Source of the DNA: a virus
IMG/VR virus record: IMGVR_UViG_3300037149_000105
Span: 32,001 to 96,000 of that record
DNA length: 64,000 bases
Reading direction: 5' to 3' (one strand)
A program made the translations under genes and the position numbers. Positions within the stretch are counted from its first letter, which is position 1, and every line of letters begins with the position of its first letter. Under the pieces are notes generated by a model. It did not search any database. It had not been told where the DNA came from and saw only the letters and a program-made list of their open reading frames with translations. Shown piece after piece: positions 21,163 through 62,924 of the stretch.

Positions 21163-21243
21163 GTCTCCCCCATGGGTGAGTGGATTGAAACTGTTATGGT
21201 TAGACAAGTCTCAGAAGCATCACCCTTCTGAGTGGATTGAAAC
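21163..21243 (+). CRISPR. Two type I-C repeat-like units (21163-21191, 21208-21243) 16 nt apart; not a canonical array
   Basis: GTCTCCCCCATGGGTGAGTGGATTGAAAC and GTCTCAGAAGCATCACCCTTCTGAGTGGATTGAAAC. Confidence 0.7.
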
Positions 21244-21259
21244 TAAGAAAGAGGCTGCT

Positions 21260-21451
21260 TTGCTCATACCACTTCCTCACCACAGTTTAAATCGTGAAAC
21301 TTCCGAACGTCTCCTTAAGCTCAGGGCATTGCTGCTCAAGATCCTTCAGGAGGCCCCCGATTCAGTTAGAGAAGAGGTATCCGAAAAGGCCCTCGCCATT
21401 TATTCCGCAATTCAGCAAGAAATTTTCAAGGAGCAATCAAATGGAACGTAA
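21260..21451 (+). CDS. Small helical hypothetical protein (63 aa)
   Basis: TTG start after AAAGAGG inside ORF 21122-21451; overlaps ligase start. Confidence 0.5.
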   Translation: MLIPLPHHSLNRETSERLLKLRALLLKILQEAPDSVREEVSEKALAIYSAIQQEIFKEQSNGT

Positions 21452-22517
21452 ACTGGCTAGTATCCAACGCATCCTCGCTCTGGACCCCATCGAAGGGGCC
21501 GATAGGATTGAGGTGGCCACCATTCAGGGATGGAAGGTGGTAGTGCAGAAAGGACTCCACAAAGTAAGCGATCTCGTGGCATATTTCGAGATAGATTCAT
21601 GGGTGCCGACTGAAGTTGCCCCTTTTCTCACCAAGGTTGGACAGGAACCTCGTGAATACGAAGGGGTTCGGGGTGAACGACTCCGCACGGTAAAACTGAA
21701 GGGGCAGGTATCTCAAGGGATTATTCTTCCCCTCAGCGATTTTGCAAATCTTCCTCTCCCTCCCTACGATTTTCTCATGGGAAAATGGAATCAGGAGGGA
21801 CTGGACATCACCGAGCAACTGGGCGTCATCAAATATGAACCCCCAATCCCTGCTTGCCTCGCCGGTCAGGTCAAAGGTATGTTCCCCAGCTTCATCCGCA
21901 AGACCGATCAGGAACGAATCCAGACCCTTCCCGAGTTCTTCGAGGAATATAAGGATATGGGCTTCGAAGTCACGATCAAACTTGATGGTTCGAGCATGAC
22001 CGTCTACCACCGGAATGGAGATACCGGAGTTTGCAGCCATAATCTAGATCTCAAAGAGGACCAGAACAACTCCTTCTGGAAGATTGTCAACCGTCTGAAC
22101 CTTGTTGAACTCCTGAATCACCTGGGACTCAACGTAGCTATCCAAGGGGAATTGATTGGAGAGGGAATCCAAGGAAATCATGAGAAACTCAAGGGTCAGG
22201 AACTCTTTGTCTTCGATATTTGGGACATTGATGCCCACCGCTACATGACCCGCCAGGAGCGTCAGGATGTCCTCCAGGCTCTCGAAGCTCTCCTCCCCAA
22301 GGGGGAGCACATCTATTCCGTCCCTGTCGTCCACGAGGACATGAAGGTCTTCCAGACCTACCCAACAATGGAAACCATCCTCGTCTTTGCTGGAGCAGGC
22401 CCAAGTCTCAACGCTCAGATTAGAGAGGGGCTGGTTTTTAAATCCACCTCTCTGGTTAACGGCGAAACGGTAAGTTTTAAAGTTATAAATAATAAATATC
22501 TCCTGAAAGAAAAATAA
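21441..22517 (+). CDS. RNA ligase (DRB0094/Rnl5-like)
   Basis: MERKLASIQ..PIEGADRIE N-terminal OB domain; KTDQERIQ, KLDGSS, QGELIG, FVFDI, REGLVFK, FKVINNKYLL. Confidence 0.92.
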   Translation: MERKLASIQRILALDPIEGADRIEVATIQGWKVVVQKGLHKVSDLVAYFEIDSWVPTEVAPFLTKVGQEPREYEGVRGERLRTVKLKGQVSQGIILPLSDFANLPLPPYDFLMGKWNQEGLDITEQLGVIKYEPPIPACLAGQVKGMFPSFIRKTDQERIQTLPEFFEEYKDMGFEVTIKLDGSSMTVYHRNGDTGVCSHNLDLKEDQNNSFWKIVNRLNLVELLNHLGLNVAIQGELIGEGIQGNHEKLKGQELFVFDIWDIDAHRYMTRQERQDVLQALEALLPKGEHIYSVPVVHEDMKVFQTYPTMETILVFAGAGPSLNAQIREGLVFKSTSLVNGETVSFKVINNKYLLKEK

Positions 22518-22538
22518 ATATCAAACACTCCTACAAAG

Positions 22539-22567
22539 GTCTCTCCCACGGGAGAGTGGATTGAAAC
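22539..22567 (+). CRISPR. Solitary type I-C repeat-like unit
   Basis: GT-CTCTCC-CACG-GGAGAG-TGGATTGAAAC, 17 nt upstream of the HNH ATG. Confidence 0.7.
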
Positions 22568-22584
22568 AAACCAAAGGTGCAGCC

Positions 22585-23142
22585 ATGACGAGTGGTAGTA
22601 AAAAATTTCACAAGAAGGCACTGGGGGATCAGGTGATCGCCGTCGATATGCACTTTATGCCAATGATGGCAGTTAGTCGTCGTCATGCTCTCAAGGCTCT
22701 GGCCACTGAGAGGGCTGAAGCTCTAGATCTGGAGACCTGGACTCGCAAGGCTCTCTATGAGATCACCGACATCCACGATTTTGCCTGTATTCTCTATCCA
22801 GGTGTGCAAGCGATCAAGGATACGAAGCTGAAACTCGGAAAGGGTTACAGGGGCATCCTTGAACGGGATGAGCACATCTGCCAGTACTGTGGTAAGAAGG
22901 CCAATACTGTTGACCATGTGATGCCCAAGTCAAGAGGTGGGGGCTCTGCTCCTAACAACCTTGTAGCTGCCTGCCTCGCTTGCAATCAAAAGAAGGCTGA
23001 TCGAACTCCAACAGAGGCCGGAATGCCTTTAATTCACGCGATTCATGCAACCCGGTGGAAACTGATGGAGCAGTTCCATGAACTGACCGTTAGCTGGTCA
23101 TATCGCAGAAAGAAGATGGACGAAGATGTCAAGATTGCCTAA
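22585..23142 (+). CDS. HNH endonuclease (McrA-like)
   Basis: RDEHICQYCG..TVDHVMPKSRGG..NLVAACLACNQKK. Confidence 0.88.
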   Translation: MTSGSKKFHKKALGDQVIAVDMHFMPMMAVSRRHALKALATERAEALDLETWTRKALYEITDIHDFACILYPGVQAIKDTKLKLGKGYRGILERDEHICQYCGKKANTVDHVMPKSRGGGSAPNNLVAACLACNQKKADRTPTEAGMPLIHAIHATRWKLMEQFHELTVSWSYRRKKMDEDVKIA

Positions 23143-23635
23143 CTTTACTGCCTCCCTGCTTCATCATATAGCCTATGGGCTAGATATTGGCGGGGAGGTT
23201 CATGATTTTGAACCACAAAATGCCAAAGATCTCCGCTATCGGAACAGCCCCGATGGCGGATTTAACGGTGGGAGCCCCAATCCACAGCAGTATACGCAGG
23301 GGCCAGAGGCCCAAACCCTCCCCCCTGATGCTCCGTTGTATCATGGCACTACCTTGAATGATTGGAATGAGGGTGGGGCCACCAAACTTAGAGTTTCCAC
23401 CAATATTGAAGAGGCAAAAGCTGATGCAAAAACCGCTGCTGAAGGTGAAAATGCCCCAATTGTGGTTATGATCAAGTTTGGAGACCTGGGTGAGTATGAA
23501 TTGGAGCCTGATTCAACCCATTCGGAGGTTCATGAAGGGGTCTCCTGGCAGGAGTGCCTGAAGGATACAGGGGTATTTTGTATCGTCGGAGACATTGACT
23601 CCTTGAAACCCAATTTTAAACTGGTCAACGGTTGA
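23126..23635 (+). CDS. Hypothetical protein
   Basis: 169 aa; LYHGT motif; stop codon supplied by the TnpB element right end. Confidence 0.6.
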   Translation: MSRLPNFTASLLHHIAYGLDIGGEVHDFEPQNAKDLRYRNSPDGGFNGGSPNPQQYTQGPEAQTLPPDAPLYHGTTLNDWNEGGATKLRVSTNIEEAKADAKTAAEGENAPIVVMIKFGDLGEYELEPDSTHSEVHEGVSWQECLKDTGVFCIVGDIDSLKPNFKLVNG

Positions 23636-24698
23636 CATCCTCCCCTCCCTAAACGGAGGGGATTCCTAGCCGTAGAGTCTGATGTCCCAGACCGAGACGG
23701 AGTATATTTTGAGCAGCGTTTACATCTCTATTATGAGACGCTCCGCATTCAGAGCATACCCAATCTCTTACCGACAGCCCACTTAGTCCTTTCGGGCCGG
23801 TGAGGGCGGCACAGCCGCCACACCGCTGGGTTGTCCAAGCTTCATTAACGATTCGGACTACCTTGCCAAGCTTAATAGCTTTATAAGACAAGAAGTTCAG
23901 AACCATACTGATACCCGCATCCAAGGTAGATTTGCAAGCTTTCAAATGTAAATCCCCAACTATGATTAAATCATAGGAATTAATCAGATTTGTGGTCAAT
24001 TTGTGCAAATAATCTTTGCGTTGATTTTTGATTCGGGCGTGAATAGATTTTGTTTGATTCTTATGTTTAGCTCTCTGAGCGGTTGCAAGCCTAGCTTGCG
24101 ATTTGTAATAAAACTTTTCATTAGAATAACTGATCGAATCAGAGCTAGTCGCTATGGATTTCAAACCTAAATCAACTCCTACTTGAGTTTTAAACTCTAC
24201 CAGTTGGGAGACTTTCCCAATCTCAACTTGCAAGTTTATGAACCAATTCCCCTTGGAATCCTGATTAAAACTACCAGTCCTGATATCAGCTTCGCTGAGA
24301 TTAATGGCGTTATAATGAGAATCGAAGAATTTAAACTTATGTTTACAATAGATGAACAAGTTATTTTTAAATCTCAAGGCGGAAGCTTTGAATGGTATCC
24401 ACCCGAGAACGCATTTATAGCTCCGCCAGCGAAGCTTTTGTTTCTTGAATTGTTTGCGCCTAGTAATATATTCTTTACATATGGATTGGACGGTTGTAGA
24501 GTTCAAACCCAATTCGCCCGCACAGCCAGCCGTCTGGTTGTCAAGTTCATACTCGCTGGCCCATTTCGAATACTTCTTGAGTTGGTTATAACTCTGTTCA
24601 TTACAATAGTTCCATACCAGATTGACCGCAGAACTCATCCGAATCAAGATTTTTCTTGAAACGGAGTCCTTGAGTCTGTAATGGAGAGTAATAATCAT
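23632..24698 (-). mobile_element. IS200/IS605-family tnpB-only element (IS1341-like)
   Basis: Right end ...CCCCTCCGTTTAGGGAGGGGAGGATGTCAA on minus strand; no tnpA; left end not identified. Confidence 0.75.
23649..24698 (-). CDS. tnpB: TnpB RNA-guided nuclease
   Basis: VNLVWN, VGVDLG, IIVGDL, VNEAWTTQRC..C, WVCSECG..NRDVNAAQNIL. Confidence 0.93.
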   Translation of the reverse strand: MIITLHYRLKDSVSRKILIRMSSAVNLVWNYCNEQSYNQLKKYSKWASEYELDNQTAGCAGELGLNSTTVQSICKEYITRRKQFKKQKLRWRSYKCVLGWIPFKASALRFKNNLFIYCKHKFKFFDSHYNAINLSEADIRTGSFNQDSKGNWFINLQVEIGKVSQLVEFKTQVGVDLGLKSIATSSDSISYSNEKFYYKSQARLATAQRAKHKNQTKSIHARIKNQRKDYLHKLTTNLINSYDLIIVGDLHLKACKSTLDAGISMVLNFLSYKAIKLGKVVRIVNEAWTTQRCGGCAALTGPKGLSGLSVRDWVCSECGASHNRDVNAAQNILRLGLGHQTLRLGIPSV

Positions 24699-24793
24699 GT
24701 GTGTATCTATTTAATACTCAGAAAGTTTGATTTTGCTCATGGCACAAAGTATCCGGTAATACATCTTCTGAATCCCTTATGTGAGGGTTTCAG

Positions 24794-27172
<2,379 letters not shown>

Positions 27173-27199
27173 GTCCGAGTAATAGATAGGGGAGGCCGT

Positions 27200-27838
27200 A
27201 TGGTCCGATCTATCATCAGCTACAACAAAGATTTTTATGATGTTCTTGCAGAGCTAAAACGAAAGGGAGAAGAGTTTACTCCTTTGACTCTGCAAGAACT
27301 TCAGTATGACCAGCTTATTCTTGCTGCATCTGGGAATGCAGGGGCATGCCGCTGCTCATTATCTGAGGTTATAAATGAAAAGAGGGAACGACGAGCCCTC
27401 TTGCTTGCCCTACCAAAAGAAAAGTTTGAAACGTTCAAGTTAGATGATGTGCTGGCTGGAGATTTACAGGAAGACCGGCTCGTGATTGACAACAAATTGC
27501 CCTCGTGGAACGATTTATCCCCCATAGGTAAGTTGTATTTCAAACTGGCCTGTTTGGAAAACCACCCCCATGATGCCATGAGCCGACTAACCGAAGTGGT
27601 GGGCCTTTTGCACGAGGTGGAGGGTTCTATCCCTCAGCAAATCGCGTTCAGCTTGAGGTTGGAGTTTCAATCAGCCCTCCTTTCCAAACCCTCCGAGGAT
27701 TGGGTTGGGGATGCCTGCACGAAAGCCAGTAACATGTTGTATGGGTACGTGACCGGCCCAGAGGTAGACATAATCGACAGGCTAGAGCTTTTGGATTATG
27801 TTTGCACTGCTGGCTGCTTCTACCCATTGAGTGAATAG
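27200..27838 (+). CDS. Hypothetical protein
   Basis: 212 aa, GGAGG RBS. Confidence 0.7.
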   Translation: MVRSIISYNKDFYDVLAELKRKGEEFTPLTLQELQYDQLILAASGNAGACRCSLSEVINEKRERRALLLALPKEKFETFKLDDVLAGDLQEDRLVIDNKLPSWNDLSPIGKLYFKLACLENHPHDAMSRLTEVVGLLHEVEGSIPQQIAFSLRLEFQSALLSKPSEDWVGDACTKASNMLYGYVTGPEVDIIDRLELLDYVCTAGCFYPLSE

Positions 27839-27845
27839 GAGAGGT

Positions 27846-29423
27846 ATGGAGTTTGAGGAACTAGAGGGGTTCTTCCCCTTTGATGAGATGCGTCCGAGCC
27901 AGAGGCAAGCGTTACAAAAGTTTGTTGATACGACAAACAAGGGGCGGAAGTTTACCATCCTTGAGCTTCCCACAGGGATTGGAAAATCGGGCGTGGCGGT
28001 TGACTTGGGCCGTTGGGCTCAGAATGGTGGAGCCTACCTACTTACAATTCAGAAAATATTGCAAAAACAGTACCTGTCTGAGTTCTCTGACCTTGTGGAG
28101 ATCAAAGGTGGCAGCAATTACCGCTGTGGGAATTACCCGGTCAGTTGCGATGAAGGTGCAAAGATTGCTAAGGCTCTGGGTGAAGGCCCATGCAAATGCG
28201 TCTGCCCATATAAGGAAGCGAAAGAAATCTTTCTCAACACTCCCTTTGGCCTCACCAATTTTTCCTATTTCCTCACTGTTATGACCTATCAGAAGGGCCT
28301 GTTCCCAAATCGAAAGCTACTCATTATTGACGAGGCACATAACACCGAGTCCGCCCTGATCAATCACTCCAATATTGAAGTGACGTTCAACCGACTTAAG
28401 GAGCTTGGGATTGATTTCCCGAAGCCTCCGCTAGGTCCAAAAGAGCTTGGAAGGGCCAAAAAATGGTTAGCTGATGCGGTGTTCCCAGCTTGTTCGGTGG
28501 CCAGGACTGGAATCAACGAAGCATTGATTAAGGCCCGAGCTCAGGTGAATAATGAGAGGGAAGTGATGGATATTCTCAAACAAGAAGGGTCTTTGGACCA
28601 ATTTGAAAGAAAACTGGAAATGTTTGCTCAGTCCCCTTCGAATATGTGGTTCATCGGACAAACTGAGAAATTGGAAATTAAGCCGCTTCAGGGAGACCTG
28701 TTCTCTGAAGACCTTTTATTCAGCAAAGCCGATCATGTCATCTTCCTATCCGCAACCATCTTGGACCCCCGAACTTTTGTTCGCAATCTGGGAATACAGC
28801 CTAGACAGTGCGGCTATCTGGGTCTCCCATCTGAGTTTCCAAAAGAGAACCGCCGCATCATTTTCACCCCGGCTGGCTCCATGTCATACAAAAATTATGA
28901 TACGACTCTCCCTAAATTGCTCAAAAAGATTGATCGCATCCTGACAAAACATGTTGCAGACAAGGGAATCATTCATTGTCAATCATTTAAAACAATGAAG
29001 CATATTATGGACTACTTTAGAAGCTCCCCTCATGCGTGGAGGCTCTTGAGTCACGACTCTAGTTCTCATTCCAAGAATGGGGCCATCGCTGCTCATATGA
29101 CTCGTGATGAGCCAACTGTTCTGCTTAGCCCTTCAATGACTGAAGGCTTGGACCTCCGTGATGACTTGAGTCGATTTCAAATCGTAGCAAAGGTTCCGTA
29201 TGCCAGTCTGGCTGACCCATATGTAAAAACGAGAATGGAACTGGACCCCGATTGGTATCAACTTCAGACCGCTCTGACTTTGGTTCAGGCTCTCGGACGT
29301 TCGGTTCGTTCGAAGGACGATCATGCTATTTCCTACATAATTGATGGGGATTTTGCTCGTTTTATGTCTCAAGCGCAGTCAATACTTCCCGACTGGTGGC
29401 TTGACTCAATCGAGATCAAGTAG
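27846..29423 (+). CDS. DinG/XPD-family SF2 helicase
   Basis: RPSQ, PTGIGKS, IIDEAH, LSAT, EGLD, QALGRSVR; Cys cluster. Confidence 0.9.
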   Translation: MEFEELEGFFPFDEMRPSQRQALQKFVDTTNKGRKFTILELPTGIGKSGVAVDLGRWAQNGGAYLLTIQKILQKQYLSEFSDLVEIKGGSNYRCGNYPVSCDEGAKIAKALGEGPCKCVCPYKEAKEIFLNTPFGLTNFSYFLTVMTYQKGLFPNRKLLIIDEAHNTESALINHSNIEVTFNRLKELGIDFPKPPLGPKELGRAKKWLADAVFPACSVARTGINEALIKARAQVNNEREVMDILKQEGSLDQFERKLEMFAQSPSNMWFIGQTEKLEIKPLQGDLFSEDLLFSKADHVIFLSATILDPRTFVRNLGIQPRQCGYLGLPSEFPKENRRIIFTPAGSMSYKNYDTTLPKLLKKIDRILTKHVADKGIIHCQSFKTMKHIMDYFRSSPHAWRLLSHDSSSHSKNGAIAAHMTRDEPTVLLSPSMTEGLDLRDDLSRFQIVAKVPYASLADPYVKTRMELDPDWYQLQTALTLVQALGRSVRSKDDHAISYIIDGDFARFMSQAQSILPDWWLDSIEIK

Positions 29424-29455
29424 AGTATTAGAGAGATGGAGGCACTAGGTAATAT

Positions 29456-30958
29456 ATGAGTTTTTGGCGTATTTTTCACAATCTGATCCGGCATGATGAC
29501 ACTCCGGACGAGGTTCAAAGGGCTACGTATGCCTGTGAATGGCTATCAGAGAACGGTATACGACTAAGGAAAATCTGTTCGCCGCAGCAGACTGAGATTA
29601 TTTCTTGCATCGGTCAGTTTTGGTTTAAGCAGAAGACCGCCCCGTCTTATAAGATCCTTCGAGAAACCTTAGAGCGAAACTCTATAGTTATGGGAGTGGT
29701 CGATGTAATTGCCGAATATGAATCTGAAGAGGGTCTTCAGCTTCACGGACTGAGCGATTTGGGTCAACTTCTCACCGACTTCCAGGAGGAATGGAAGCGG
29801 GAACGACTCGCTGGGGTAATTAAAACCGTCAGAGCTATAAACAATAGTTCGTGGACGGACCCAACTTCTAAGAAGGTGCATTCTGGAGCCTCAGATGCCC
29901 TAAAATATCTTTTACAACAGATTGAGACTGGGGTCATCATGACCAACAACCAGTCTCTCAGTGGGGCTCTGAACGACATGGCTGGGGAGATCATGAGTAT
30001 TTACGAAAAAAATAAGGCGGATCGCATGGCAGGAAGCATCAGAATTATGACCGGCATCGCCGCAATCGATATTTGTGTGCCCATCAAACGTGGTGATTGC
30101 GTGGGGGTGCTGGGGTACGCAGGACAGCGCAAGTCTACCCTTTGCCGCACCTTCGCTTACAATGCAGCCGTGCAAGGGTTTAACGTTCTACACGTGACGC
30201 TTGAGCAGACTTATGATGAGGAACGGATCATTTATGCGTTGATCCATTCGGCTGACAAGAGGTTTGCCAGCTATGGTATCCAGCCCACAAAAAAGAGGTT
30301 TGATGACGGGTTGCTTACCACAGAAGAAGAAAAGTTCTTAAAGGAAGTGGTGCTGCCAGATTTGGAGCAAAACCTCCTGGGGCGGCTCATCATCCGTCAG
30401 CCCACCGATGGAAGTTCCTGGAGCAACATCAAGATGATGGCCGAAATGACCAATCAGACCACTCCTCTGGACATGCTTTTCGTGGATTACTTGACTATCA
30501 CAGCCACGGCTTCAACTTATGATTCCAAAGCGGAAATGGAGATGAACATCAAGGATGCAAAACAGACAGCCCTGCAATTTGATAATGGGCGCAGCATCGT
30601 CTTCCTCACTCCAATTCAAGGAAACCGTAAAGGGTACGACGAAGCCAAGGATACGGGGGGTGTGTGGGACATTACTGGTATCAACCAATACTCTGAGTTT
30701 GACAAATCTTTCGACACCATCTTTACCACATTTCTCGGTGATGCCCTCCCAGGCGATGTGGGAAATCAGATGGCCGTATCGACCGTCAAGACCCGCAGAT
30801 GCCCCCCTATGCCCCTTACCAACCTCGCAGTCGATGTCGATGTGGGTCGGGTGGGGGATATGGAGGGTTCGAGTGGTGAGGGTTCGACCTATGATGAGTT
30901 GGCAACAATCAAAGAACAGCACCTCCGCACAGAGGAAAATGCGGTTCCATTTGATTAA
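29456..30958 (+). CDS. DnaB-like replicative helicase
   Basis: TGI..ID, variant Walker A GYAGQRKST, TLEQ, FVDYL, PIQGNR. Confidence 0.8.
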   Translation: MSFWRIFHNLIRHDDTPDEVQRATYACEWLSENGIRLRKICSPQQTEIISCIGQFWFKQKTAPSYKILRETLERNSIVMGVVDVIAEYESEEGLQLHGLSDLGQLLTDFQEEWKRERLAGVIKTVRAINNSSWTDPTSKKVHSGASDALKYLLQQIETGVIMTNNQSLSGALNDMAGEIMSIYEKNKADRMAGSIRIMTGIAAIDICVPIKRGDCVGVLGYAGQRKSTLCRTFAYNAAVQGFNVLHVTLEQTYDEERIIYALIHSADKRFASYGIQPTKKRFDDGLLTTEEEKFLKEVVLPDLEQNLLGRLIIRQPTDGSSWSNIKMMAEMTNQTTPLDMLFVDYLTITATASTYDSKAEMEMNIKDAKQTALQFDNGRSIVFLTPIQGNRKGYDEAKDTGGVWDITGINQYSEFDKSFDTIFTTFLGDALPGDVGNQMAVSTVKTRRCPPMPLTNLAVDVDVGRVGDMEGSSGEGSTYDELATIKEQHLRTEENAVPFD

Positions 30959-31239: not shown

Positions 31240-31241
31240 CG

Positions 31242-53486: not shown

Positions 53487-53491
53487 AAACA

Positions 53492-54200: not shown

Positions 54201-54240
54201 TGGCAGCCTCTAAAGAAGGGCTGCATATTCCATTTCCTCC

Positions 54241-54328
54241 GGAAGATCGGTGTAGTTGGAGGGGCACACTAGTCTTGAAAACTAGGGTCCGAAAGGGCCA
54301 GCGGGTTCGAATCCCACATCTTCCGCCA
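54241..54328 (+). tRNA. tRNA-Ser(UGA)
   Basis: CTAGT-CTTGAAA-ACTAG; long variable arm; GCCA. Confidence 0.9.
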
Positions 54329-54329
54329 T

Positions 54330-54403
54330 GCCAATGTAGTTCAGTGGTAGAACCCGAGCCTTGTAAACTCGCCACGACAGTTCGATTCTGTCCCTTGGCT
54401 CCA
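54330..54403 (+). tRNA. tRNA-Thr(UGU)
   Basis: CGAG.-CTTGTAA-.CTCG; CCA. Confidence 0.85.
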
Positions 54404-54466
54404 ACACCCCCTTTCTCTGCTTTACCCTTACCTGATAGCAGAGCAGGTTCGCCTTAAGGAGGCAAT

Positions 54467-55378
54467 GTGATTATGCACAACAACAACACCGTAGTATCCC
54501 TTTACGCCCTGAATGGTAGCCGAAAGACCCCGCTCAGAGAATACGATCACAAGCGTGGGGTTCTTGAATCTGAAGTTAGGGTTCCATTGAAATTTGATTC
54601 TGAGTATGGAATCGGTTTCAAGTTTCAGGACATCGGTCGTCGTCGCCTTGAACTCTGGATTGACGGAGCGATGGTGACGGACAATCTCATTCTCGATGGA
54701 GAGAGCTTCCTGGAGCGATTCATGGATTCTGACAAGAGATTCCGTTTCGTTGAAGCAAGCAATGCTGCCGTGGCTGATCCGACCAGTCCCTCCAATGGGG
54801 GAGTCATGGTGAAGCTATGGCGTGAACAGCCTGATCTCCAGATGTTCAAACTGGCCCCGGATTACGGCAAGCAGTGGCCGCAGCCCCCAGTAGCCCCTTG
54901 GCAGCCCTGGACTCCTCCAGTAGTGTGGGGCCGCTCTGATTGCCCAGGAGATCCTTCGCGGTCCTTGGATGTCATGTGTGGGGGCGCTACGTCATCTTCC
55001 TCACCCTCCGGTCCTCAAGGTCCGGTTGGTCAGCAAGGAGCCGTTGGAGTGCGAGGAATTGGGTATGGTGACAACATCGGAGAGTGTAATCTCTTCTGTT
55101 CATCCGCTCAGTCTCCCAGCCTCGCTGATGGATTCTGTTCGACGGAGATGTCCAACCTATCCCTCTTCGATAAGCTGAAGGGAGCGACAGTTGAAGGATC
55201 CACCTCCAAGCAGACCTTCAATGATACGGTTTGGCTGGGTGACTTTGGTAGCCCCTTGGTTTTCAAGTTCCAGCTTCACGGAATCGAAGAAGCCACACCG
55301 GGCAATTTCTGCCCAGGTTGTGGGATTAAACGCAAGAATCCCACTAACTTCTGCCCCAATTGTGGAGCAAAGCAATAG
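54467..55378 (+). CDS. Hypothetical protein with C-terminal double Zn ribbon
   Basis: 303 aa; FCPGCG...FCPNCG; AAGGAGG RBS. Confidence 0.75.
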   Translation: MIMHNNNTVVSLYALNGSRKTPLREYDHKRGVLESEVRVPLKFDSEYGIGFKFQDIGRRRLELWIDGAMVTDNLILDGESFLERFMDSDKRFRFVEASNAAVADPTSPSNGGVMVKLWREQPDLQMFKLAPDYGKQWPQPPVAPWQPWTPPVVWGRSDCPGDPSRSLDVMCGGATSSSSPSGPQGPVGQQGAVGVRGIGYGDNIGECNLFCSSAQSPSLADGFCSTEMSNLSLFDKLKGATVEGSTSKQTFNDTVWLGDFGSPLVFKFQLHGIEEATPGNFCPGCGIKRKNPTNFCPNCGAKQ

Positions 55379-55462
55379 TGGACCGAACCTTCAAAGTTAC
55401 CCCACCCTATGGTGGGTATCCCTACTGCTTCCATGGTTCAGCATAGGGCACTCTTTGAAGTA

Positions 55463-55532
55463 GCATGGGGACTATAATCCCGGTGGTAAAGCCTCCACAA
55501 GGGGCCTGGACGGTTCGACTCCGCCCCATGCG
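55463..55532 (+). pseudogene. Degenerate tRNA-like element
   Basis: GCATGGG/CCCATGC stem and GGTTCGACTCC T arm; non-canonical D and anticodon arms. Confidence 0.45.
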
Positions 55533-55538
55533 ATTAAT

Positions 55539-55628
55539 GGAAGTGTAAGCAAAGCAGGCAAGCTAGACTGTCTCGAAAACAGTTGGCCGATTTTCGGCCT
55601 AGGCGTTCGACCCGCCTCACTTCCGCCA
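55539..55628 (+). tRNA. tRNA-Ser(CGA)
   Basis: ACTGT-CTCGAAA-ACAGT; long variable arm; GCCA. Confidence 0.9.
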
Positions 55629-55669
55629 TCATATTTGTGTGAGTCTTTAAAATAGACTAATGTCAAACT

Positions 55670-55745
55670 TGGACTGTAACTTCAGAGGCAGAAGGCTGCT
55701 TTTACACGGCAGAGGTCGAGATTTCGAAATTCTCCAGTCCAACCA
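55670..55745 (+). tRNA. tRNA-Val(UAC)
   Basis: CTGCT-TTTACAC-GGCAG; CCA. Confidence 0.88.
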
Positions 55746-55814
55746 ATCCTCATCTTTCCGAACTACCGAGTATTATCATTGTAGGACAGTGTGAGTCTGA
55801 AACCCAGACTGACG

Positions 55815-55835
55815 ACACACACACACACACACACA
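55815..55835 (+). repeat. (AC)10 microsatellite
   Basis: Directly visible. Confidence 0.9.
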
Positions 55836-56444
55836 GGAAGCAGTTCATTGAAAATGGTCTCAGCAGTCCGACACACGCTTAGGCCACCAAGGGGAGAACG
55901 AGATTAGCTCATGGAGAGCATCGGTTCTTTAGGCGTAGGGGATACCCTCACCACCGTGTGAAACGTTCGATTCGACTTCTCAGACTCCCCGATTATATGC
56001 CACAGTAGTAAGTGTGGGCCTACAAAATAGGCTAATGACACGGTTAAGAGGTCTGAGTCGGTCACTGCCTTAGCCGGGGAACCGGATCCAGGTTCCCCGG
56101 ATTTATACAAATCGTTGAAGCCCCTCAAGGTCCTTGGGGCTCCGATATGGCGGCAACCAGATGAATGGTTGACAAAAGCAAGAGGCCGCTCTTCAAGGCA
56201 GAGCGAGTTCAGTTACGGCAACAACGGAGTCGATTCTCCATAGCGGGCTACCGCAAATCGCTTTGAAAGACTGAGCCCCCCGGCTCTCCGAAGACAGGAA
56301 TCGTGAAACGGAGAGTGGAAGAAGTCCGAACCACTGGGGAGGAAAAGTTGCCGATGTGGGTAAGGTACGAAAGTATTGAATCCCACCCACCATGCACACG
56401 CCCCTGAACCAAACCTTCAGGGGCGTTCCATTTCAGGAGAGAAA

Positions 56445-57167
56445 ATGTTTGAGCCAAAAAAACTGAGTCCAGCGGAATTGTGCTTATGCCAGAACACCAT
56501 CAGCCCCAATACATTCTACATGTTGGTTGGGGATGCGCTGGTATCTGGTAAACCCCTCTCGGTAGTTCGAATGGGGGATGGGGAACGAGCCCTCTATGAC
56601 TACTGTCTGGGGAAACAGCTACCCAATATCATGGATGCGGATTGGATGCAACGACTCGGAGCCGATGGTATCGCAACGGATGAACTCCGGTATCGCCTGA
56701 TTCGTGCCGCCACCCACTGCACCCACTTCGCTCCTTCCATTTCAGGAATTCAATTGGACAGTTTCGAACTCTACTCCCTATTCCCAGCCCGAGCCCGTTA
56801 CGTTGATAACTTTTTTGTCAACGCCTGGACGGAGGAGATGAAGATTCAACTTTTCAAAACTGCTGGCCATGTTCTCTTTATCCATCGGAACACTTCCACC
56901 GCAGATGCGATGCAGATCAGAGCCAAATGGGGTCTAGGAGTCAAGGTGACCTATCTGAAGCTAGCTAGTTGGCGGGATTCGGAGTCAGTGATTGAGAAGG
57001 CCAAGAGCATAGATGCTCCGCTAGTGCTGTTCAGTGCTGGTCCCGCTAGCAAATACATCGGTCCTGAAATTTCAACGAGTGGTTTGATTCCTCGTGTCAC
57101 TTTGGATATCGGCAATGTGGCAGACTATTGGACCCTCACGAGTCTGAAAGATGTTCAAAGAATTTAA
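56445..57167 (+). CDS. GT-D fold (DUF1792-like) glycosyltransferase
   Basis: SVVRMGDGE, SAGP..K, LDIGN; AGGAG RBS. Confidence 0.7.
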   Translation: MFEPKKLSPAELCLCQNTISPNTFYMLVGDALVSGKPLSVVRMGDGERALYDYCLGKQLPNIMDADWMQRLGADGIATDELRYRLIRAATHCTHFAPSISGIQLDSFELYSLFPARARYVDNFFVNAWTEEMKIQLFKTAGHVLFIHRNTSTADAMQIRAKWGLGVKVTYLKLASWRDSESVIEKAKSIDAPLVLFSAGPASKYIGPEISTSGLIPRVTLDIGNVADYWTLTSLKDVQRI

Positions 57168-57206
57168 AAAATTGTATACGGATTTGCCAAAACTATGGTA
57201 TAATAT

Positions 57207-57487
57207 AGGTGTAGGGCAGATCATTGACAAGAAGCTCCAACGACGAGAGAACACAGAGGTAAGCCTCGTCGCTGTAGGGTTTGCAATCTAGCTTGGGGCA
57301 TCGAAAGATGCGAACTTGATTCTTCGGAATCAACGGCACAACACAGGATGTGTTTCACCAAGCTTTATGTCGAGATTAGGGAAGCGCACCCAGAACGCTT
57401 CTTAACCAAAGTCCCGATACCACCCCAGTTGCATCCTCCACCTTCTAATGACTGCGACAAGAGCCCCGAAAGGGGCTCAAGTTTTTT
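57207..57487 (+). ncRNA. Stand-alone ~280 nt small RNA
   Basis: Own promoter (57175-57204), boxA-like ATCATTGACAA, terminator GAGCCCC-GAAA-GGGGCTC plus U-tract; no ORF. Confidence 0.55.
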
Positions 57488-58085
57488 AATTTTCCAGTAA
57501 ATCCGGATGAGTTTTTGTTAATCTGAGGTAGGCAGCGTGTTGTACAGGCCCTCCGTTAAACGCCGACACAACACTGGATGGGTTTCGCGCCTCTAAAATC
57601 ACACGCCAGCCATCCCAACTGGCTATTCGTTTACCCCCAGAATCCTCAACTTTGCTGCAATGAGACAGCACTAGGGGTATCATGCGAAGCATATCAACCC
57701 CGGAGGAGAGTGGGTTCTCCTCCCCTGGGAACGCCTCAGCGTAAAGTTGCCTCAGTCTATCCCTCTTAGTCACAGTGTGATGCAACCCCATTCGCTCATC
57801 CCCCTTAATGAAATCTATCCAATCAGGAATGCTACCTATGTAGGTGGCTCCAAGCACATCGAGTCCGGTCTCCAAGTACTTGCTCATCGCTTCTTGACCC
57901 ATTGTTAACCGATCACCCACATGAGTCTCTATTAGCTTCGGAGGGGTTCCAGGACCAGCCTTAATCTCTATTAATTTCCCATTTTTTATTCTTCGCCAAT
58001 GAGCCCGATGACCCATCAGGACCACATCCCTAGCGGATGCTTCTTTTAGCAATCTGGCTGCAAACTTGAATTTGAACCTGAACAT
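57486..58085 (-). CDS. Hypothetical protein
   Basis: 199 aa, GAGG RBS. Confidence 0.65.
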   Translation of the reverse strand: MFRFKFKFAARLLKEASARDVVLMGHRAHWRRIKNGKLIEIKAGPGTPPKLIETHVGDRLTMGQEAMSKYLETGLDVLGATYIGSIPDWIDFIKGDERMGLHHTVTKRDRLRQLYAEAFPGEENPLSSGVDMLRMIPLVLSHCSKVEDSGGKRIASWDGWRVILEARNPSSVVSAFNGGPVQHAAYLRLTKTHPDLLEN

Positions 58086-58195
58086 CGTCGCCTCAACAAA
58101 GAGTTGCAGATTCTGAAAATTTTTCTATACAAACCCCTTCGAAACAGGGTATACTAGTTAGGTAGGGGACGAAGAGCCCTTCAAAGGAGAAACAC

Positions 58196-58564
58196 ATGGA
58201 AGGCAAGCGTTTCAGCATCAACGGAATCAAGGTCACGGCAACCCATCTGGGTGGGGGCCTCTATGTCGGCATCCCCGACAACCTGGGTGAAGCCCTCAAG
58301 GCCCTCAAGACTCTCCTGAGTGGTGCACTGTTCGAGCCCCGTGACATCCAGCTTCTGCCCGATGAGCCCAAGGGCACCCCGCAGGGTCACTACACCGCCC
58401 CCAAGGCTCCCGCCGCCCCCAAGCCCGACTTCTCCAACGAGACGGTCCTGGAGCACTGCAAGCGCAAGGGCTACAGCCAGCGGGACTTCGCTGACCTGAT
58501 CGGCAAGCATCACAAGACCGTGTGGCGGTGGCAGCAGGAAGGCAAGAAGATGTCCGAGGTCTAA
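58196..58564 (+). CDS. HTH DNA-binding protein
   Basis: YSQRDFADLIGKHHKTVWRWQ; promoter 58126-58155. Confidence 0.8.
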   Translation: MEGKRFSINGIKVTATHLGGGLYVGIPDNLGEALKALKTLLSGALFEPRDIQLLPDEPKGTPQGHYTAPKAPAAPKPDFSNETVLEHCKRKGYSQRDFADLIGKHHKTVWRWQQEGKKMSEV

Positions 58565-58704
58565 CCGGCTGGAGTGCCGGGGAGCTTAGGAATGTCAGAG
58601 ACCCCCGATACGTAGATCCGGCAGAATGGGCTGAACGTAGTAGGTTGGCCCCTCCAGCGTCAACGCATAGCCCCGAAAGGGGCTTTGGTGGTAGAGGGGG
58701 CTAT

Positions 58705-58947
58705 ATGAAGTTCACCACTGGTGGTCACTATGGCATAGAGGCTAAGGATCTGGAAGACAATACGGTGAGTGTCGTGGCCGAGGATGGCCGAGTGATGTTT
58801 GCAGTCATCTTGGGTGAGGATGGCCACTCCATCGAAGTCCGGAGTTCCGCAACCTGCAAGGTTGGGGGAGTCCTTTATGATTCGCGCCTCTTGGTTCAGC
58901 CCGAAGCATCCAATTCCATTTTCATCAAGGCTCGTTCCTATGAGTAA
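58705..58947 (+). CDS. Hypothetical protein
   Basis: ATG after GAGGGG. Confidence 0.6.
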   Translation: MKFTTGGHYGIEAKDLEDNTVSVVAEDGRVMFAVILGEDGHSIEVRSSATCKVGGVLYDSRLLVQPEASNSIFIKARSYE

Positions 58948-59101
58948 ATGGAAATATTACAACTGCCCCCAATGCGGGGCCATCTTGGAGCGAAGATGCT
59001 GGGCTCCTCTGGGAGAGAAACGAGTTAGGTTTCTCTTCTGCCGTGAGTGCCGGGTCCGCTACACGACCAAGGACATGGTTCTTAATAAGGAGTTCAAATG
59101 A
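58940..59101 (+). CDS. Small Zn-ribbon protein
   Basis: CPQC...CREC. Confidence 0.55.
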   Translation: MSKWKYYNCPQCGAILERRCWAPLGEKRVRFLFCRECRVRYTTKDMVLNKEFK

Positions 59102-59325
59102 GCAAACTGTGCGTTTTTTGTGAACATATGGAGTTCGATCACGAGGATGCTCATGGCGGAGGCTGTGAAACCTGCGGCTATGGGGCAGATGAGGGCCGAA
59201 ACGATATGGTCTGTCAGAAGGGCCACTGGAAGACCGGAATTGAGTGGGGCCTGACCAGTTACCGTGAGAAAATCTGTGCCGCTGAAACCTGCACTGATTA
59301 CGAACAGGCCGAGGACGAAGATTAG
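59098..59325 (+). CDS. Small Cys-rich protein
   Basis: 75 aa, AAGGAG RBS. Confidence 0.65.
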   Translation: MSKLCVFCEHMEFDHEDAHGGGCETCGYGADEGRNDMVCQKGHWKTGIEWGLTSYREKICAAETCTDYEQAEDED

Positions 59326-59393
59326 CTATACAAACTCTCCGGTCTGAGGTATACTAATTGGGAAGGGGCCGAAACCCCACTGAGGAGAATCGC

Positions 59394-59663
59394 ATGGCTC
59401 TCGAACGTCAGGACATCCGTATCTCGAACCGGATATACCTTCTGCTCAACCCGGAGGATTCGGACACCCCGGCCCTGGTCCATACCAAGGACTGGAAGGC
59501 TTCGGCCACCTACACCTGTGTGATGGGTGAGGGAGTCCTCATGTCCAATCGAGATGAGGATGTGGAACTCACGCCCCAGGAACTGAAGACCCTTGACAAG
59601 TATGAGGATCTGGAATGCCAGTATAACGAGGAAGCTCGTAAGGACTGTCCTGAATACCAGTAG
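59394..59663 (+). CDS. Hypothetical early protein
   Basis: ATG after GAGGAG; promoter 59327-59355. Confidence 0.7.
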   Translation: MALERQDIRISNRIYLLLNPEDSDTPALVHTKDWKASATYTCVMGEGVLMSNRDEDVELTPQELKTLDKYEDLECQYNEEARKDCPEYQ

Positions 59664-59704
59664 CCCTCCATGAACGCAATTTCCATCCCACTGAGGAGAA
59701 TCGC

Positions 59705-60028
59705 ATGGCCAAGAAAATCACTCTCGCAACGCTTAAGTCCTTTGTCAGAAAGAACCTCCCCGTTATGTTCATCTGCAAAAGAGCTAGTTTTGACGGGATG
59801 ACGGACTGTGTGGAATACGACAGCAACGCGACTTTTCAACCGGCAAAAGAGGGCGCATCCTATCCTGAAAACACCTTAGGGATTGCGGGCGTCTGGCTGG
59901 TTGGAAGTTCACGTGACCGTATTAGTCGCTATGAAGCCCCAGGCTGGGAAGGATTCGAAGTCTATAATTGCTGTGGGACGTTTGTGGTGGCGGTGAAGGT
60001 AGCCATCCCCATGGAACCGAAACTGTAA
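59705..60028 (+). CDS. Hypothetical early protein
   Basis: 107 aa, same leader as the previous gene. Confidence 0.75.
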   Translation: MAKKITLATLKSFVRKNLPVMFICKRASFDGMTDCVEYDSNATFQPAKEGASYPENTLGIAGVWLVGSSRDRISRYEAPGWEGFEVYNCCGTFVVAVKVAIPMEPKL

Positions 60029-60067
60029 TTCCCGCCCCTCTGAAGAGGGGCATTCTTTGGAGCCATC

Positions 60068-60460
60068 ATGTCCATAGCTAGCCAGTATCTCGCGTTCGAA
60101 CTTTCAGGGGCTAGTCGTGTCTTTTTGTGGACGCAGTTCAAGCCGCACTTCAAGAAAGTGATGTGCCAGCACATTACCGTCCAGTTCAATCTGACCGAGG
60201 AGTCGGCTGTGCTGCTCCAGGAGCAACTGGCTAACGCTAACCTTCAGGTCGTAGGGTTCCAGATCGGAGACGGGGTGGAGTGTCTGGTGGTGGAGGTGAA
60301 CGGTTCGTCTCGTCGTCCCGATGGGGGCTGCTACCACATCACCCTCAGTCTGGCCGATGGGCATAAGCCGGTCGAGTCCAACCAGCTTATCAAACAGCAG
60401 GGGTTCCAGACTTGTGTCCCAGTCGGAATCGAGGCGGAGCTAAAACTCCTCAACAAATGA
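60068..60460 (+). CDS. 2H phosphoesterase
   Basis: HITV and HITL motifs. Confidence 0.75.
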   Translation: MSIASQYLAFELSGASRVFLWTQFKPHFKKVMCQHITVQFNLTEESAVLLQEQLANANLQVVGFQIGDGVECLVVEVNGSSRRPDGGCYHITLSLADGHKPVESNQLIKQQGFQTCVPVGIEAELKLLNK

Positions 60461-60487
60461 GGCCATCACACAGTAATATGTATTATA

Positions 60488-60811
60488 ATGCCCAATCACT
60501 ACGCCACTTCATGGATGCCCCGAGAGGACTTGGTTATCTCCCTATCCGATGAGACTGCGGCGGAGCGGACTCAAGAGGAACGAGACCAAATGTTCCTAGA
60601 GCTTCGTGAGGTGGTGAAACAGCATGGCTTTGACCTCAACGCCTGGGGCTCTGATGCTTCGTTTAGAAAATATTATCAGGCACCATTGAAGAAAGAATGT
60701 GAAGGTTTCTTTGACGTATGGGACTCATACTGGCTGGCCAATACGTTGGGTGGCCCAACCTTCGACCAATTGAGCGAGGCAGCGGAGCGGATTCGCAAAT
60801 TCATCATTTGA
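60488..60811 (+). CDS. Hypothetical protein
   Basis: 107 aa. Confidence 0.6.
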   Translation: MPNHYATSWMPREDLVISLSDETAAERTQEERDQMFLELREVVKQHGFDLNAWGSDASFRKYYQAPLKKECEGFFDVWDSYWLANTLGGPTFDQLSEAAERIRKFII

Positions 60812-60848
60812 CATCTTCCCTGAAATTTGATATGCTGTAAGGGAGGAT

Positions 60849-61259
60849 GTGATGATAAAACTCACTGGCAAGCTTCATTACGACCACACTCCCGAGTACG
60901 GATATCGGCTCGTGCTGGAAATCTGCCCCGGTATTCCCATGTTCTACCGGTGGCTCATCCCCAAGTGGTATCAAGTGAATGGACTGAGGGCCAAGGCTCA
61001 CATCACCGTGATCCGGAGGGAGAAGCCTGCTAACCTTAAGGCATGGGGTAAGTATGAAGGGGAGGTTGTGGAGTATGAGTATGATCCTGAGTCTCTTCAG
61101 ACTGATGGCAAGCTGTACTGGTGGTTAAACTGTTTCAGCCACCGGCTCGAAGCGGTTGCTGAGGAGTTGGGTATGCCCTTTGTCAACTACATCAAACCCG
61201 CCGAAGGTTACCGGAAGGTTTGGCACACCACTGTAGCAAACATGAAACAAACGAATTAA
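60849..61259 (+). CDS. 2H phosphoesterase
   Basis: AHITVI and WHTTV motifs; TTGACA-N17-TATGCT promoter. Confidence 0.75.
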   Translation: MMIKLTGKLHYDHTPEYGYRLVLEICPGIPMFYRWLIPKWYQVNGLRAKAHITVIRREKPANLKAWGKYEGEVVEYEYDPESLQTDGKLYWWLNCFSHRLEAVAEELGMPFVNYIKPAEGYRKVWHTTVANMKQTN

Positions 61260-61313
61260 TTTCTATATACAAATCTGACCGAAAGTGGGTATACTAGTCT
61301 AAAGGAGTCACAT

Positions 61314-61442
61314 ATGAACCGTCTCGTTCGTCTCGCCCTTCGCGCACAGCGGAATCTTCGCAATCCCCTGGTCTGGTATGTGGCCGGGATGGTTGACCTG
61401 ACCCTCATCCTGCTGGTCTGCAACCACTTCAAGTGGATCTGA
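61314..61442 (+). CDS. Small membrane peptide (42 aa)
   Basis: Own promoter 61266-61295, AAGGAG RBS, terminator hairpin near 61460-61484. Confidence 0.6.
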   Translation: MNRLVRLALRAQRNLRNPLVWYVAGMVDLTLILLVCNHFKWI

Positions 61443-61513
61443 TACACAGAAAAGAAATGAAACGCCTCCGAACGGGGGCGTTTCAAGTATTAGCTAGTAA
61501 AGGAGTAGTTCAA

Positions 61514-62239
61514 ATGAAAGAAGGATACACTCACATCTCTGCCATTATCGACCGTTCAGGTTCGATGTTCGGCATCAAAACCGATACCGAGGGCGGGTAT
61601 AACACCTTCCTGAAGGATCAGAAAGAACTGCCAGGGGAGGCTACGATCAGCCTCACTACATTTGACGACCGGATTGAACTCGAATACGGAATGATCGCCA
61701 TCAAGGATGCCCCCGCCTTCACCCTCCAGCCCCATGGTATGACTGCCATGCTGGATGCCATTGGTGTGACCATCAAGAACCTGGGAGCCAAGCTGGCAGC
61801 CATGGATGAAGCCGACCGTCCCGAGAAGGTTCTGGTTGTGATTCTCACTGATGGCGAGGAGAACAGCAGCAAGGAATACACCTATCAGACCATCAAGGCC
61901 ATGATCACCGAACAAACCGAAGTTTACTCCTGGGAGTTCCTGTTCCTAGGAGCCAACCAGGATGCGGTTCTGGCCGGGAGTCAGATTGGCATCTCCGCTG
62001 GCAAGAGCATGAGCTATGCGGCCAACGGAGCCAGTGTGGGCAACACTTTCACAACCATATCCAAATCCAGTTCTGCTTATCGGATGTCGGCCCGAGGGGT
62101 CGCTGCCCCTGATTTCACCAATCAGGATCGCGCTGATTCCATGATTCTGGATCCGAGTGCAGCAACCAGTGTTTCGGCTGGGGTTCCTAACGTTCAGACG
62201 TTCAACCCACCTCCGGTTCCCCCAGCAGATCCTAAGTAA
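61514..62239 (+). CDS. vWA domain protein
   Basis: DRSGSM MIDAS, TAMLDAIG, ILTDGEENSS, FLGAN. Confidence 0.9.
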   Translation: MKEGYTHISAIIDRSGSMFGIKTDTEGGYNTFLKDQKELPGEATISLTTFDDRIELEYGMIAIKDAPAFTLQPHGMTAMLDAIGVTIKNLGAKLAAMDEADRPEKVLVVILTDGEENSSKEYTYQTIKAMITEQTEVYSWEFLFLGANQDAVLAGSQIGISAGKSMSYAANGASVGNTFTTISKSSSAYRMSARGVAAPDFTNQDRADSMILDPSAATSVSAGVPNVQTFNPPPVPPADPK

Positions 62240-62306
62240 GCTCAGCGACTAGCCGCTTCTAATGTGTGAACCTACAAAATAGGCTAATGACACGGGAGGA
62301 GCCATA

Positions 62307-62780
62307 ATGTCCATCTTAACCGAGTGGGTCTCTACCCTAGAAGCCACCACTTATCCCTGGACTGATCAGTATTTACATACGCCTAATGGGTTCGACCCAT
62401 TAGGCGTTTTGTGTGAAATGTATCGTCTCACGTTCTCCGCTCAGCCGATTCAGGATCAACCAACTTGGGTTTTGGGCCCTACTGGCACCTTTTACATCTT
62501 CACCGATCCTGGGGCTACTGACGGCATCAGCAACAAGCTCCCTGAGTCGGTTCAGCGATGGGCTGATTTGTTGGAAGCGGATCCAATCATGGTTCTGACC
62601 GATAGCAATGTAGACATTGGCTATCCGGTCTACATCCCTCTGAATGAAGTGGTGGATGGATTGGTTCTGAAGGTGGATACCACCATCCCCCCGGTTTTCG
62701 GGGTGCAGCAGCGGCCTTATTCAAATACTGAAATTATAGCTCTTATCGCTGCATTCGTCGCTTCCTACAATCCTGATTAA
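62307..62780 (+). CDS. Hypothetical protein
   Basis: 157 aa, GGAGGAG RBS. Confidence 0.7.
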   Translation: MSILTEWVSTLEATTYPWTDQYLHTPNGFDPLGVLCEMYRLTFSAQPIQDQPTWVLGPTGTFYIFTDPGATDGISNKLPESVQRWADLLEADPIMVLTDSNVDIGYPVYIPLNEVVDGLVLKVDTTIPPVFGVQQRPYSNTEIIALIAAFVASYNPD

Positions 62781-62834
62781 ACTTTTTTGAAAAAAGACTA
62801 ACCAAAAATCAAAACTCGCGGTATTATCTCTAGG

Positions 62835-62884
62835 TAGACGCTAACAGCAATCTCATCCCCTGTAACGGAACGAAACTGCGTCTA
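62835..62884 (+). ncRNA. AGAC-N5-CAGCAA family RNA, copy 4 (leader of the TROVE-like gene)
   Basis: TAGACGC/GCGTCTA stem, CTGTAAC loop, followed by U-tract. Confidence 0.6.
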
Positions 62885-62892
62885 GTGTTTTT

Positions 62893-62924
62893 GTCTCATG
62901 GCCGTGCCATGAGTGGATTGAAAC
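62893..62924 (+). CRISPR. Solitary 32-nt type I-C repeat-like unit
   Basis: GT-CTCATGGC-CGT-GCCATGAG-TGGATTGAAAC. Confidence 0.75.

Follow-up and report, generated by a model that had tools for sequence, protein, structure and literature searches.

Type I-C CRISPR repeat mimics dispersed in the intergenic regions of a phage genome, candidate RNA decoys for host Cas proteins

This study deals with four short repeat-like units found in a phage genome, IMG/VR record IMGVR_UViG_3300037149_000105 (147,410 nt, 51% complete according to CheckV, called G000 where it is compared with other records). The window analysed is a stretch of 64,000 nucleotides corresponding to bases 32001-96000 of that record, and positions are given in window numbering unless another record is named. 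The four units mimic, in sequence and structure, the repeats of type I-C CRISPR arrays; they are carried by a phage without detectable cas genes and represent a recent, lineage-specific gain. We lean, if only slightly, towards the view that they are solitary repeat units (SRUs) acting as RNA anti-CRISPRs (Racrs), that is, as decoys for the type I-C proteins of the host. Their transcription, binding, cleavage and inhibitory action are predictions made from the sequence.

The units share the pattern GT-CTC...GAG-TGGATTGAAAC and are all located on the + strand. Unit 1 (29 nt, 21163-21191) and unit 2 (36 nt, 21208-21243) are close neighbors, unit 3 (29 nt, 22539-22567) lies between an RNA ligase gene and an HNH endonuclease gene, and unit 4 (32 nt, 62893-62924) precedes a gene for a Ro-like protein. 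On re-reading, coordinates and sequences agree with those given in a preliminary description of this DNA. A scan of the whole record, proposed in the same description, found exactly four exact matches to the 14-mer GAGTGGATTGAAAC, all on the + strand and all within the window. A simple calculation puts the number of exact copies due to chance at about 0.001, and the reversed-pattern control gave 0 matches. When up to two mismatches are allowed in the 11-mer, 21 occurrences are observed in the record for 25 expected, which is the chance level; hence, only exact copies were counted. Looser motif scans (up to two mismatches plus a hairpin) match reversed-sequence controls as often, and no extra units are claimed in the record. 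The units are not part of a repeat-spacer array, where spacers of about 33-35 nt would be found; there are four copies, with a lone pair 16 nt apart.

In type I-C systems, the canonical repeat folds into a 7-bp stem capped by a 5-nt loop, with overhangs of 2 nt at the 5' end and 11 nt at the 3' end (PMC8524198). The nuclease Cas5c (Cas5d) cleaves behind the last base of the stem and remains on the resulting 5' handle; its determinants are the stem base, the cut site and U22-G23-G24, while the loop and the 5' overhang are ignored (PMC8524198). The units reproduce this geometry, with a 2-nt 5' overhang, a stem-loop, an 11-nt 3' overhang UGGAUUGAAAC and the cut site at the stem's base. With RNAfold, they form 6 to 8 pairs at -5.9 to -11.8 kcal/mol. 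The preliminary description had claimed that the inner hairpins differ from one unit to another and yet still pair. This is true of units 2, 3, and 4, which form uninterrupted runs of 8, 6, and 8 pairs starting from the handle (a perfect 8-bp stem with a 7-nt loop in unit 2, a perfect 8-bp stem with a 3-nt loop in unit 4). It holds only with a bulge for unit 1, the weakest hairpin, where a C.T mismatch occupies pair 4. Shuffling the inner sequence gives the same pairing in 0.05% (unit 2), 4% (unit 3), and 1.3% (unit 4) of trials. Minimum-free-energy folds of the leaders contain the hairpin in the case of units 2, 3, and 4 and lack it in that of unit 1.

The positions that vary and those that do not were compared in a set of 18 solitary units drawn from phages of four lineages. 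There is almost no variation in pairs 1-3, which are mostly C-G, T-A, and C-G, and the handle is exact in 13 of the 18 units, the other five having one or two substitutions. Pairs 4-8 swap among AT, TA, CG, and GC but remain paired, and the loops are unrelated. The conserved positions of the units are, in this alignment, those read by Cas5c.

The same motif is found in genuine arrays. Arrays having GTCTC...GAGTGGATTGAAAC occur in Acidobacteria, Anaerolineales, Myxococcota, Methylomonas, Planctomycetes, Clostridia and others, and Cas5d is encoded in four of five genomes with such arrays, one copy each; in at least two of them, Cas5d and the array have matching contig numbers. Unit 3 shares its stem with the 33-nt repeat that occurs in arrays of Methylomonas and Chloroflexi, but its loop is shorter. 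The type I-C mimicry put forward in the preliminary description is therefore borne out, both by the retention of the positions read by Cas5c and by arrays of the same subclass in genomes bearing Cas5d. On sequence grounds, the units are type I-C repeat mimics.

Comparison with related phages argues that the units come and go. The relatives L013/L216 are syntenic with the window over 14.4-25.4 kb at 80-82% DNA identity; they are devoid of units 1 and 2 and carry instead TAGACA-18 nt-TATAAT, in front of the same Shine-Dalgarno (SD) sequence and the same 63-aa open reading frame (ORF). A second relative, L217, also lacks units 1 and 2 and has the same promoter, TGGGTATAAT, as L013. Since both relatives share TGGGTATAAT at this site, units 1 and 2 are derived and have replaced a sigma-70-type promoter. 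Unit 3 is kept in L013, where one T-A pair has gone from both sides of the stem and two loop bases have changed, with GTCTC, GAG, and the handle unchanged between flanks that are about 81% identical. Unit 4 is identical in contig L012 (99.8% identical). G001 and L253 do not have it; at this site, they carry another copy of a small-RNA gene and a hairpin pairing with the SD sequence. In turn, G001, whose DUF2828 protein is 91% identical, harbors three units behind other small-RNA copies, at sites that are unit-free in the present phage. No unit was found at RNA-ligase loci (n = 45) or at DUF2828 loci (n = 73) outside the lineage. Taken together, these alignments describe the units as recent, lineage-specific gains and losses, a behavior that would fit an accessory element of an arms race rather than a conserved control element of the operons.

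Beyond this lineage, three credible units occur in G002 (279 kb, 95% complete) and seven in G003 (485 kb, 92% complete), each with its own stem. Overall, units recur in three unrelated large-phage lineages. Some of them are closely spaced. Two units of G003 are 105 nt apart (279835-279968, - strand), and two units of contig L011, with different stems and similar tails, are about 35 nt apart (1498-1567, - strand). In G002, the unit at 252198-252220 is followed by an (AAAC)n run.

The absence of cas genes and of a real array, noted earlier for the window, holds for the whole record. Searches with Pfam models for Cas5d, Cas7, Cas8c, and Cas6, which the preliminary description had recommended, gave no match in five records (this one, G001, G002, G003, and G004). 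Because G002 and G003 are near-complete, a phage-encoded enzyme is unlikely in these two phages and, by extension, in the present one, and the partner of the units is probably the Cas5c of the host. Regarding the identity of this host, the best matches of the rIIA protein, about 30% identical, belong to phages of Alphaproteobacteria of 147-150 kb (Rhodobacter, Ruegeria, and Erythrobacter hosts), in which no I-C-like unit was found. As the length of the record is close to that of these phages, the completeness of 51% may be too low an estimate.

Units 1 to 3 belong to a region that begins with rIIA (17747-19927) and rIIB (19986-21098), both assigned with PHROGs. Behind rIIB, an intrinsic terminator on the + strand (21126-21162), made up of a 9-pair stem (21126-21150) and a T-run, abuts unit 1 and is conserved in L013. 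The 16-nt gap between units 1 and 2 (21192-21207, + strand, TGTTATGGTTAGACAA) holds an extended -10-like box, TGTTATGGT (21192-21200), 7 nt upstream of unit 2. A similar spacing between -10 box and repeat is found at promoter-driven units of unrelated phages, in L010 and, by eye, in L011, L015, and L016. Unit 2 would thus probably be the 5' end of the operon mRNA, transcription beginning there. A promoter within 250 bp, or another sign of transcription, is expected of a candidate SRU; a two-hexamer promoter scan gave no + strand site near the units. The TTGAAA of the handle was also considered as a -35 box and rejected, since by eye there is no -10 box 16-18 nt downstream, where the start codon sits.

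Downstream, the identities proposed in the preliminary description are confirmed. The 63-aa ORF (21260-21451, + strand, TTG start) overlaps the start of the RNA ligase gene with its end. It has no Pfam or PHROG match and is absent at distant ligase loci, but is 87-90% identical at the amino acid level in three relatives; this conservation designates it as a real, lineage-specific small protein. The RNA ligase (21441-22517, + strand, 358 aa) matches PF09414, PF21189, and phrog_968, and the HNH endonuclease (22585-23142, + strand, 185 aa, ATG start) matches PF01844 and PHROGs. A 169-aa ORF without family match comes next. Since a terminator scan found none between the ligase and HNH genes, unit 3 is located between two genes of one operon. 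In the second region, copy D of the small-RNA gene (62836-62892, + strand) consists of AGAC-N5-CAGCAA ... GCGTCTAG and a T-run, and folds as a stem closed by AGACGC/GCGTCT. Unit 4 abuts this copy, beginning 8 nt past the closing stem, those 8 nt being the T-run. It is followed by the gene for a Ro-like RNA-binding protein of the DUF2828/DUF7788 family (62940-64000, + strand, GTG start), which continues beyond the window and has 478 aa in the record. The neighbors of the units thus include rIIA and rIIB, the RNA ligase, a tRNA array, and the Ro-like protein, besides the 63-aa and 169-aa ORFs that match no family. SRUs are often, though not necessarily, found near acr genes. All four units, and 17 of the 18 overall by our own count, have the orientation of their flanking genes.

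How the units would act as decoys can be described as follows. Copied from type I-C repeats or evolved to mimic them, they would be transcribed within mRNAs of the phage, unit 2 at the 5' end or close to it in the operon for the 63-aa protein, RNA ligase, and HNH endonuclease, unit 3 between cistrons, and units 1 and 4 behind terminators. Host Cas5c would recognize the handle UGGAUUGAAAC together with the stem base and the cut site, cleave the hairpin at its 3' base, and remain bound to the handle, where it would seed Cas7 on RNA that is not a guide. Cas5c and Cas7 would then be diverted from real CRISPR RNAs (crRNAs), which is the Racr effect. A precedent exists with RacrIC1, which consists of one lone I-C repeat, shares its transcript with acrIC5, and allows plaques to form again in the face of an I-C system; the catalogue of viral SRUs counts 2,103 entries (PMC10651486). 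Like SRUs, the units are intergenic and carried by a mobile element with no cas gene or array nearby; units 1 and 2, 16 nt apart, are not strictly solitary. The Racr option raised in the preliminary description is therefore supported as regards sequence mimicry and precedent, with binding and cleavage as predictions. In type I-F, the inhibitory RNA lies upstream of the cut, as Cas6f stays on the hairpin.

Several observations weigh against a decoy function. Unit 1 folds, and attains the I-C geometry, only with a bulge, and units 1 and 3 measure 29 nt, against 32-37 nt for the natural repeats extracted. The units do not reach the Rfam CRISPR-DR thresholds (13-16.5 bits with CRISPR-DR9 for a cut-off of 45, only the handle being aligned). 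A promoter-like box is present at unit 2 only, and units 1 and 4 come directly behind terminators. Ribosomes on the adjoining SD sequence could compete with Cas7, which would make a poor decoy. The missing part of the record, if CheckV is right, might encode a partner. None of 787 spacers from the I-C arrays fetched matches this phage; two 20-nt near-matches, both to G002, are taken as chance-level. Finally, a search for cultured relatives with a 1,210-aa ORF gave no match, and no close cultured relative was found.

The preliminary description also proposed that the units stand at a fixed distance from start codons and form an mRNA switch. The distances themselves were correct: 16 nt from unit 2 to the TTG of the 63-aa ORF, 17 nt from unit 3 to the ATG of the HNH gene, 15 nt from unit 4 to the GTG of the DUF2828 gene, and 16 nt from unit 1 to unit 2. 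Their regularity is another matter. The terminator, the ligase stop codon (21 nt before unit 3), and the small RNA leave free spaces of 99, 67, and 54 nt, of which the units occupy 81, 29, and 32 nt. Given such small spaces, the probability of a gap of at most 17 nt is 0.95, 0.46, and 0.78, so that the spacing of 15-17 nt is no signal and reflects the need to fit an SD sequence and its spacer within a tight intergenic region. In other phages, the gap between handle and start codon is 0, 4, 22, 34, 56, 75, or 142 nt, and one unit of G003 is found within a 1,323-aa gene, in antisense orientation. The idea of a fixed distance is thus not upheld.

A leader responding to Cas5c or Cascade, with the selected effect falling on the phage genes, nevertheless deserves discussion. 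Either Cas5c would cut the polycistronic RNA between cistrons, leaving a 3' hairpin on the upstream RNA and a 5'-OH handle on the downstream one, or Cas5c and Cas7 would coat the SD sequence and start codon and silence the RNA ligase, the HNH endonuclease, and the Ro-like protein in I-C-positive cells. Because Cas5c holds the 5' handle, the coated RNA would indeed be the SD sequence and the start codon 15-17 nt away, and such a switch is physically plausible. A processing role is conceivable for two units of G003 that fill entire intergenic gaps (8-16 nt separate them from the preceding stop codon and 0-4 nt from the next start codon), and the site may serve translational control, as some unit-free relatives have a small SD-pairing hairpin there. 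However, the same operons of the closest relatives lack the units, the distances to start codons range from 0 to about 140 nt, those observed here are what the free space permits, and it is not obvious what a phage would gain if its genes came to depend on a defense protein of the host. We consider this explanation unlikely, the comparison with relatives giving no support to the switch proposed earlier. A fuller version, in which the leader senses active I-C, the host nuclease processes the phage mRNA, and Cas5c-Cas7 covers the ribosome-binding site (RBS), adjusting the RNA-repair and nuclease genes while titrating Cas proteins, is distinctly unlikely. If true, a host Cas RNase would for the first time be found to serve as a factor for phage mRNA processing or translational control.

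Other explanations use the units differently. A hairpin module independent of Cas proteins (a leader or terminator element for an unrecognized phage protein, a shuffled 5' or 3' stabilizer, or a neutral recombination scar from a host array) would account for the units lying directly behind a T-run (about 7 of 18 by our own count) and for their swapping with other leader hairpins or promoters as modules. In the same direction, the record is estimated to be incomplete, and divergent RAMP proteins can evade Pfam models. We nonetheless hold it to be improbable: the I-C handle, GT-CTC and GAG are kept across unrelated phages and bacterial arrays, which is hard to explain without contact with Cas5c, and recombination scars would not retain compensatory stems. 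Units 1 and 2, as two repeat-like units around a 16-nt gap, fit the architecture of a Cracr, a crRNA-like RNA that would steer the host I-C Cascade onto a cas or creT promoter and silence it. Yet the 16-mer has no match combining a TTC protospacer-adjacent motif (PAM) and a seed among the I-C-bearing loci searched (0.85 Mb) and the phage records, and is more simply a -10 box for unit 2, unit 1 has the weakest hairpin, and units 3 and 4 would be left unexplained; a Cracr is therefore very unlikely. The handle and the leader could also form a one-guide crRNA against sibling phages, the phage's own copy being shielded by the repeat that replaces the PAM. Mini-arrays of viruses act in this way (reviewed in PMC11656645), and between the tail of unit C of G001 and G000, 35 of 36 positions agree and the seed is perfect. 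But the unit-free alleles show TTA, CTT, or TCC before the match and not TTC, the remaining pairs are shifted in register or differ at 3-8 positions of the seed, and no second repeat sets the 3' end. On PAM and seed, this guide was rejected and its probability appears minimal.

The small-RNA genes preceding some units form a family (AGAC-N5-CAGCAA ... closing stem, for example GCGTCTAG or GGGTCTTG, and a T-run), with four copies in the window (44600-44689, 49952-50050, 52424-52525, and 62836-62892) and five in G001 (at 2487, 6946, 8706, 18444, and 18513). Where I-C-like units are present next to them, they stand directly behind these genes. At unit-free sites (window 50045-50069 and G001 about 18630-18660), a small hairpin, seen by eye, pairs the SD sequence with a preceding T/C-rich stretch; it corresponds to TTCCTTCGAAAGGAG here and to TTCCTTCAAGGAG in G001. 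From their positions, units and SD-pairing hairpins look like alternative leader modules.

Mobile genes are found around the RNA-ligase operon. An intact TnpB gene (IS605 OrfB, 23649-24698, - strand) is an insertion, as L013/L216 join 23631 to 24755; its homologs are 59-89% identical, and a second, longer TnpB-like ORF is located at 10753-12135. In L013, an insertion of about 925 nt (7805-8728 of that contig) separates the RNA ligase gene from unit 3 and carries a - strand ORF-like sequence, possibly a homing endonuclease. Mobile genes may insert preferentially at the ligase-HNH junction. Among RNA genes, ARAGORN predicts at 45393-45468 a tRNA with a four-base anticodon (aaaa), with an Rfam tRNA score of 52.7 bits; it is possibly a tRNA resembling frameshift suppressors or a mis-call. 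A 98-nt Rfam tRNA match (48167-48264, 44.8 bits) has no ARAGORN call and may contain an intron or a long insertion, and a phage transfer-messenger RNA (51135-51538, Rfam 95.9 bits) has an unusual predicted tag ending in AEVA. Repeats with a 45-nt period (G000 1-270 and 8673-8880, outside the window) were rejected as arrays, being collagen-like Gly-X-Y coding repeats; within the window, a 792-aa collagen-repeat protein is encoded at 24794-27172.

The units are most likely further members of the published SRU/Racr class, here in a multi-copy layout. What appears noteworthy is the presence of four unrelated stems in one genome, the replacement of a promoter and of some leader hairpins, and the likelihood that such units are missed by similarity searches. 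If they are decoys, one phage would hold several I-C Racr-type units whose stems have diverged while the bases contacted by Cas5c stayed fixed. Units that evade similarity-based SRU searches would mean that the published catalogue probably undercounts, especially in large phages. Moreover, I-C decoys in leaders would place phage RBSs under a Cas7 filament, which would make RNA anti-CRISPRs possible gene regulators. The presence or absence of units among close relatives offers natural controls.

Dispersed hairpins that shape mRNA ends or are shuffled as modules are known in phages, as illustrated by the RNase III sites between T7 cistrons and by T4-type promoter/stem-loop cassettes. These elements are read by RNase III or are promoters and have no CRISPR handle; they offer an analogy for the processing explanation. 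With respect to the canonical I-C repeats of S. mutans, S. pyogenes, B. halodurans, and X. oryzae (PMC8524198), the units lie outside arrays, and their stems of 6-8 bp and loops of 3-7 nt contrast with a uniform 7 bp and 5 nt. The mini-CRISPR arrays of SPV1 and SPV2 (PMC11656645) are likewise repeats in viruses devoid of cas genes, with a reliance on host Cas proteins that is also predicted here, but the units have no real spacer, and the sequences downstream of them, when tested against relatives, do not satisfy the PAM and seed requirements. Viral Cracrs (Liu et al., bioRxiv 10.1101/2024.10.29.618823) share with units 1 and 2 two repeat-like units flanking a spacer-like stretch. Type I-F Cracr pseudo-spacers are mostly 17-21 nt long, and I-C Cracrs and stacked arrays have been reported (bioRxiv 10.1101/2024.10.29.618823); the gap observed here, 16 nt, is just under the I-F range, is -10-like, and gave no target match in the loci searched, where a PAM-proximal match of at least 9 bp to a host cas or creT promoter would be expected.

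The closest known system is that of the SRUs. The listed rows of the SRU table and the text of PMC10651486 include neither these contigs nor this repeat subclass, and viral contigs with more than one SRU are already present in that table. SRUFinder rejects a partial repeat within 100 bp and requires a bit score of at least 41.1, and it therefore probably misses units such as those described here. RacrIC1, from a prophage of Bifidobacterium pseudocatenulatum (Camara-Wilpert et al., 2023; PMC10651486), is also a single mimic of the I-C repeat in a cas-free mobile element, intergenic and in the sense orientation; co-transcription with protein genes, predicted here, and Cas5c/Cascade of the host as the expected partner are further common features. 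In contrast, RacrIC1 lies 11 nt downstream of acrIC5 (PMC10651486), whereas the present units lie upstream of genes, beside the SD sequence, and one genome holds four copies with four different stems, two of them 16 nt apart and two of them 29 nt long.

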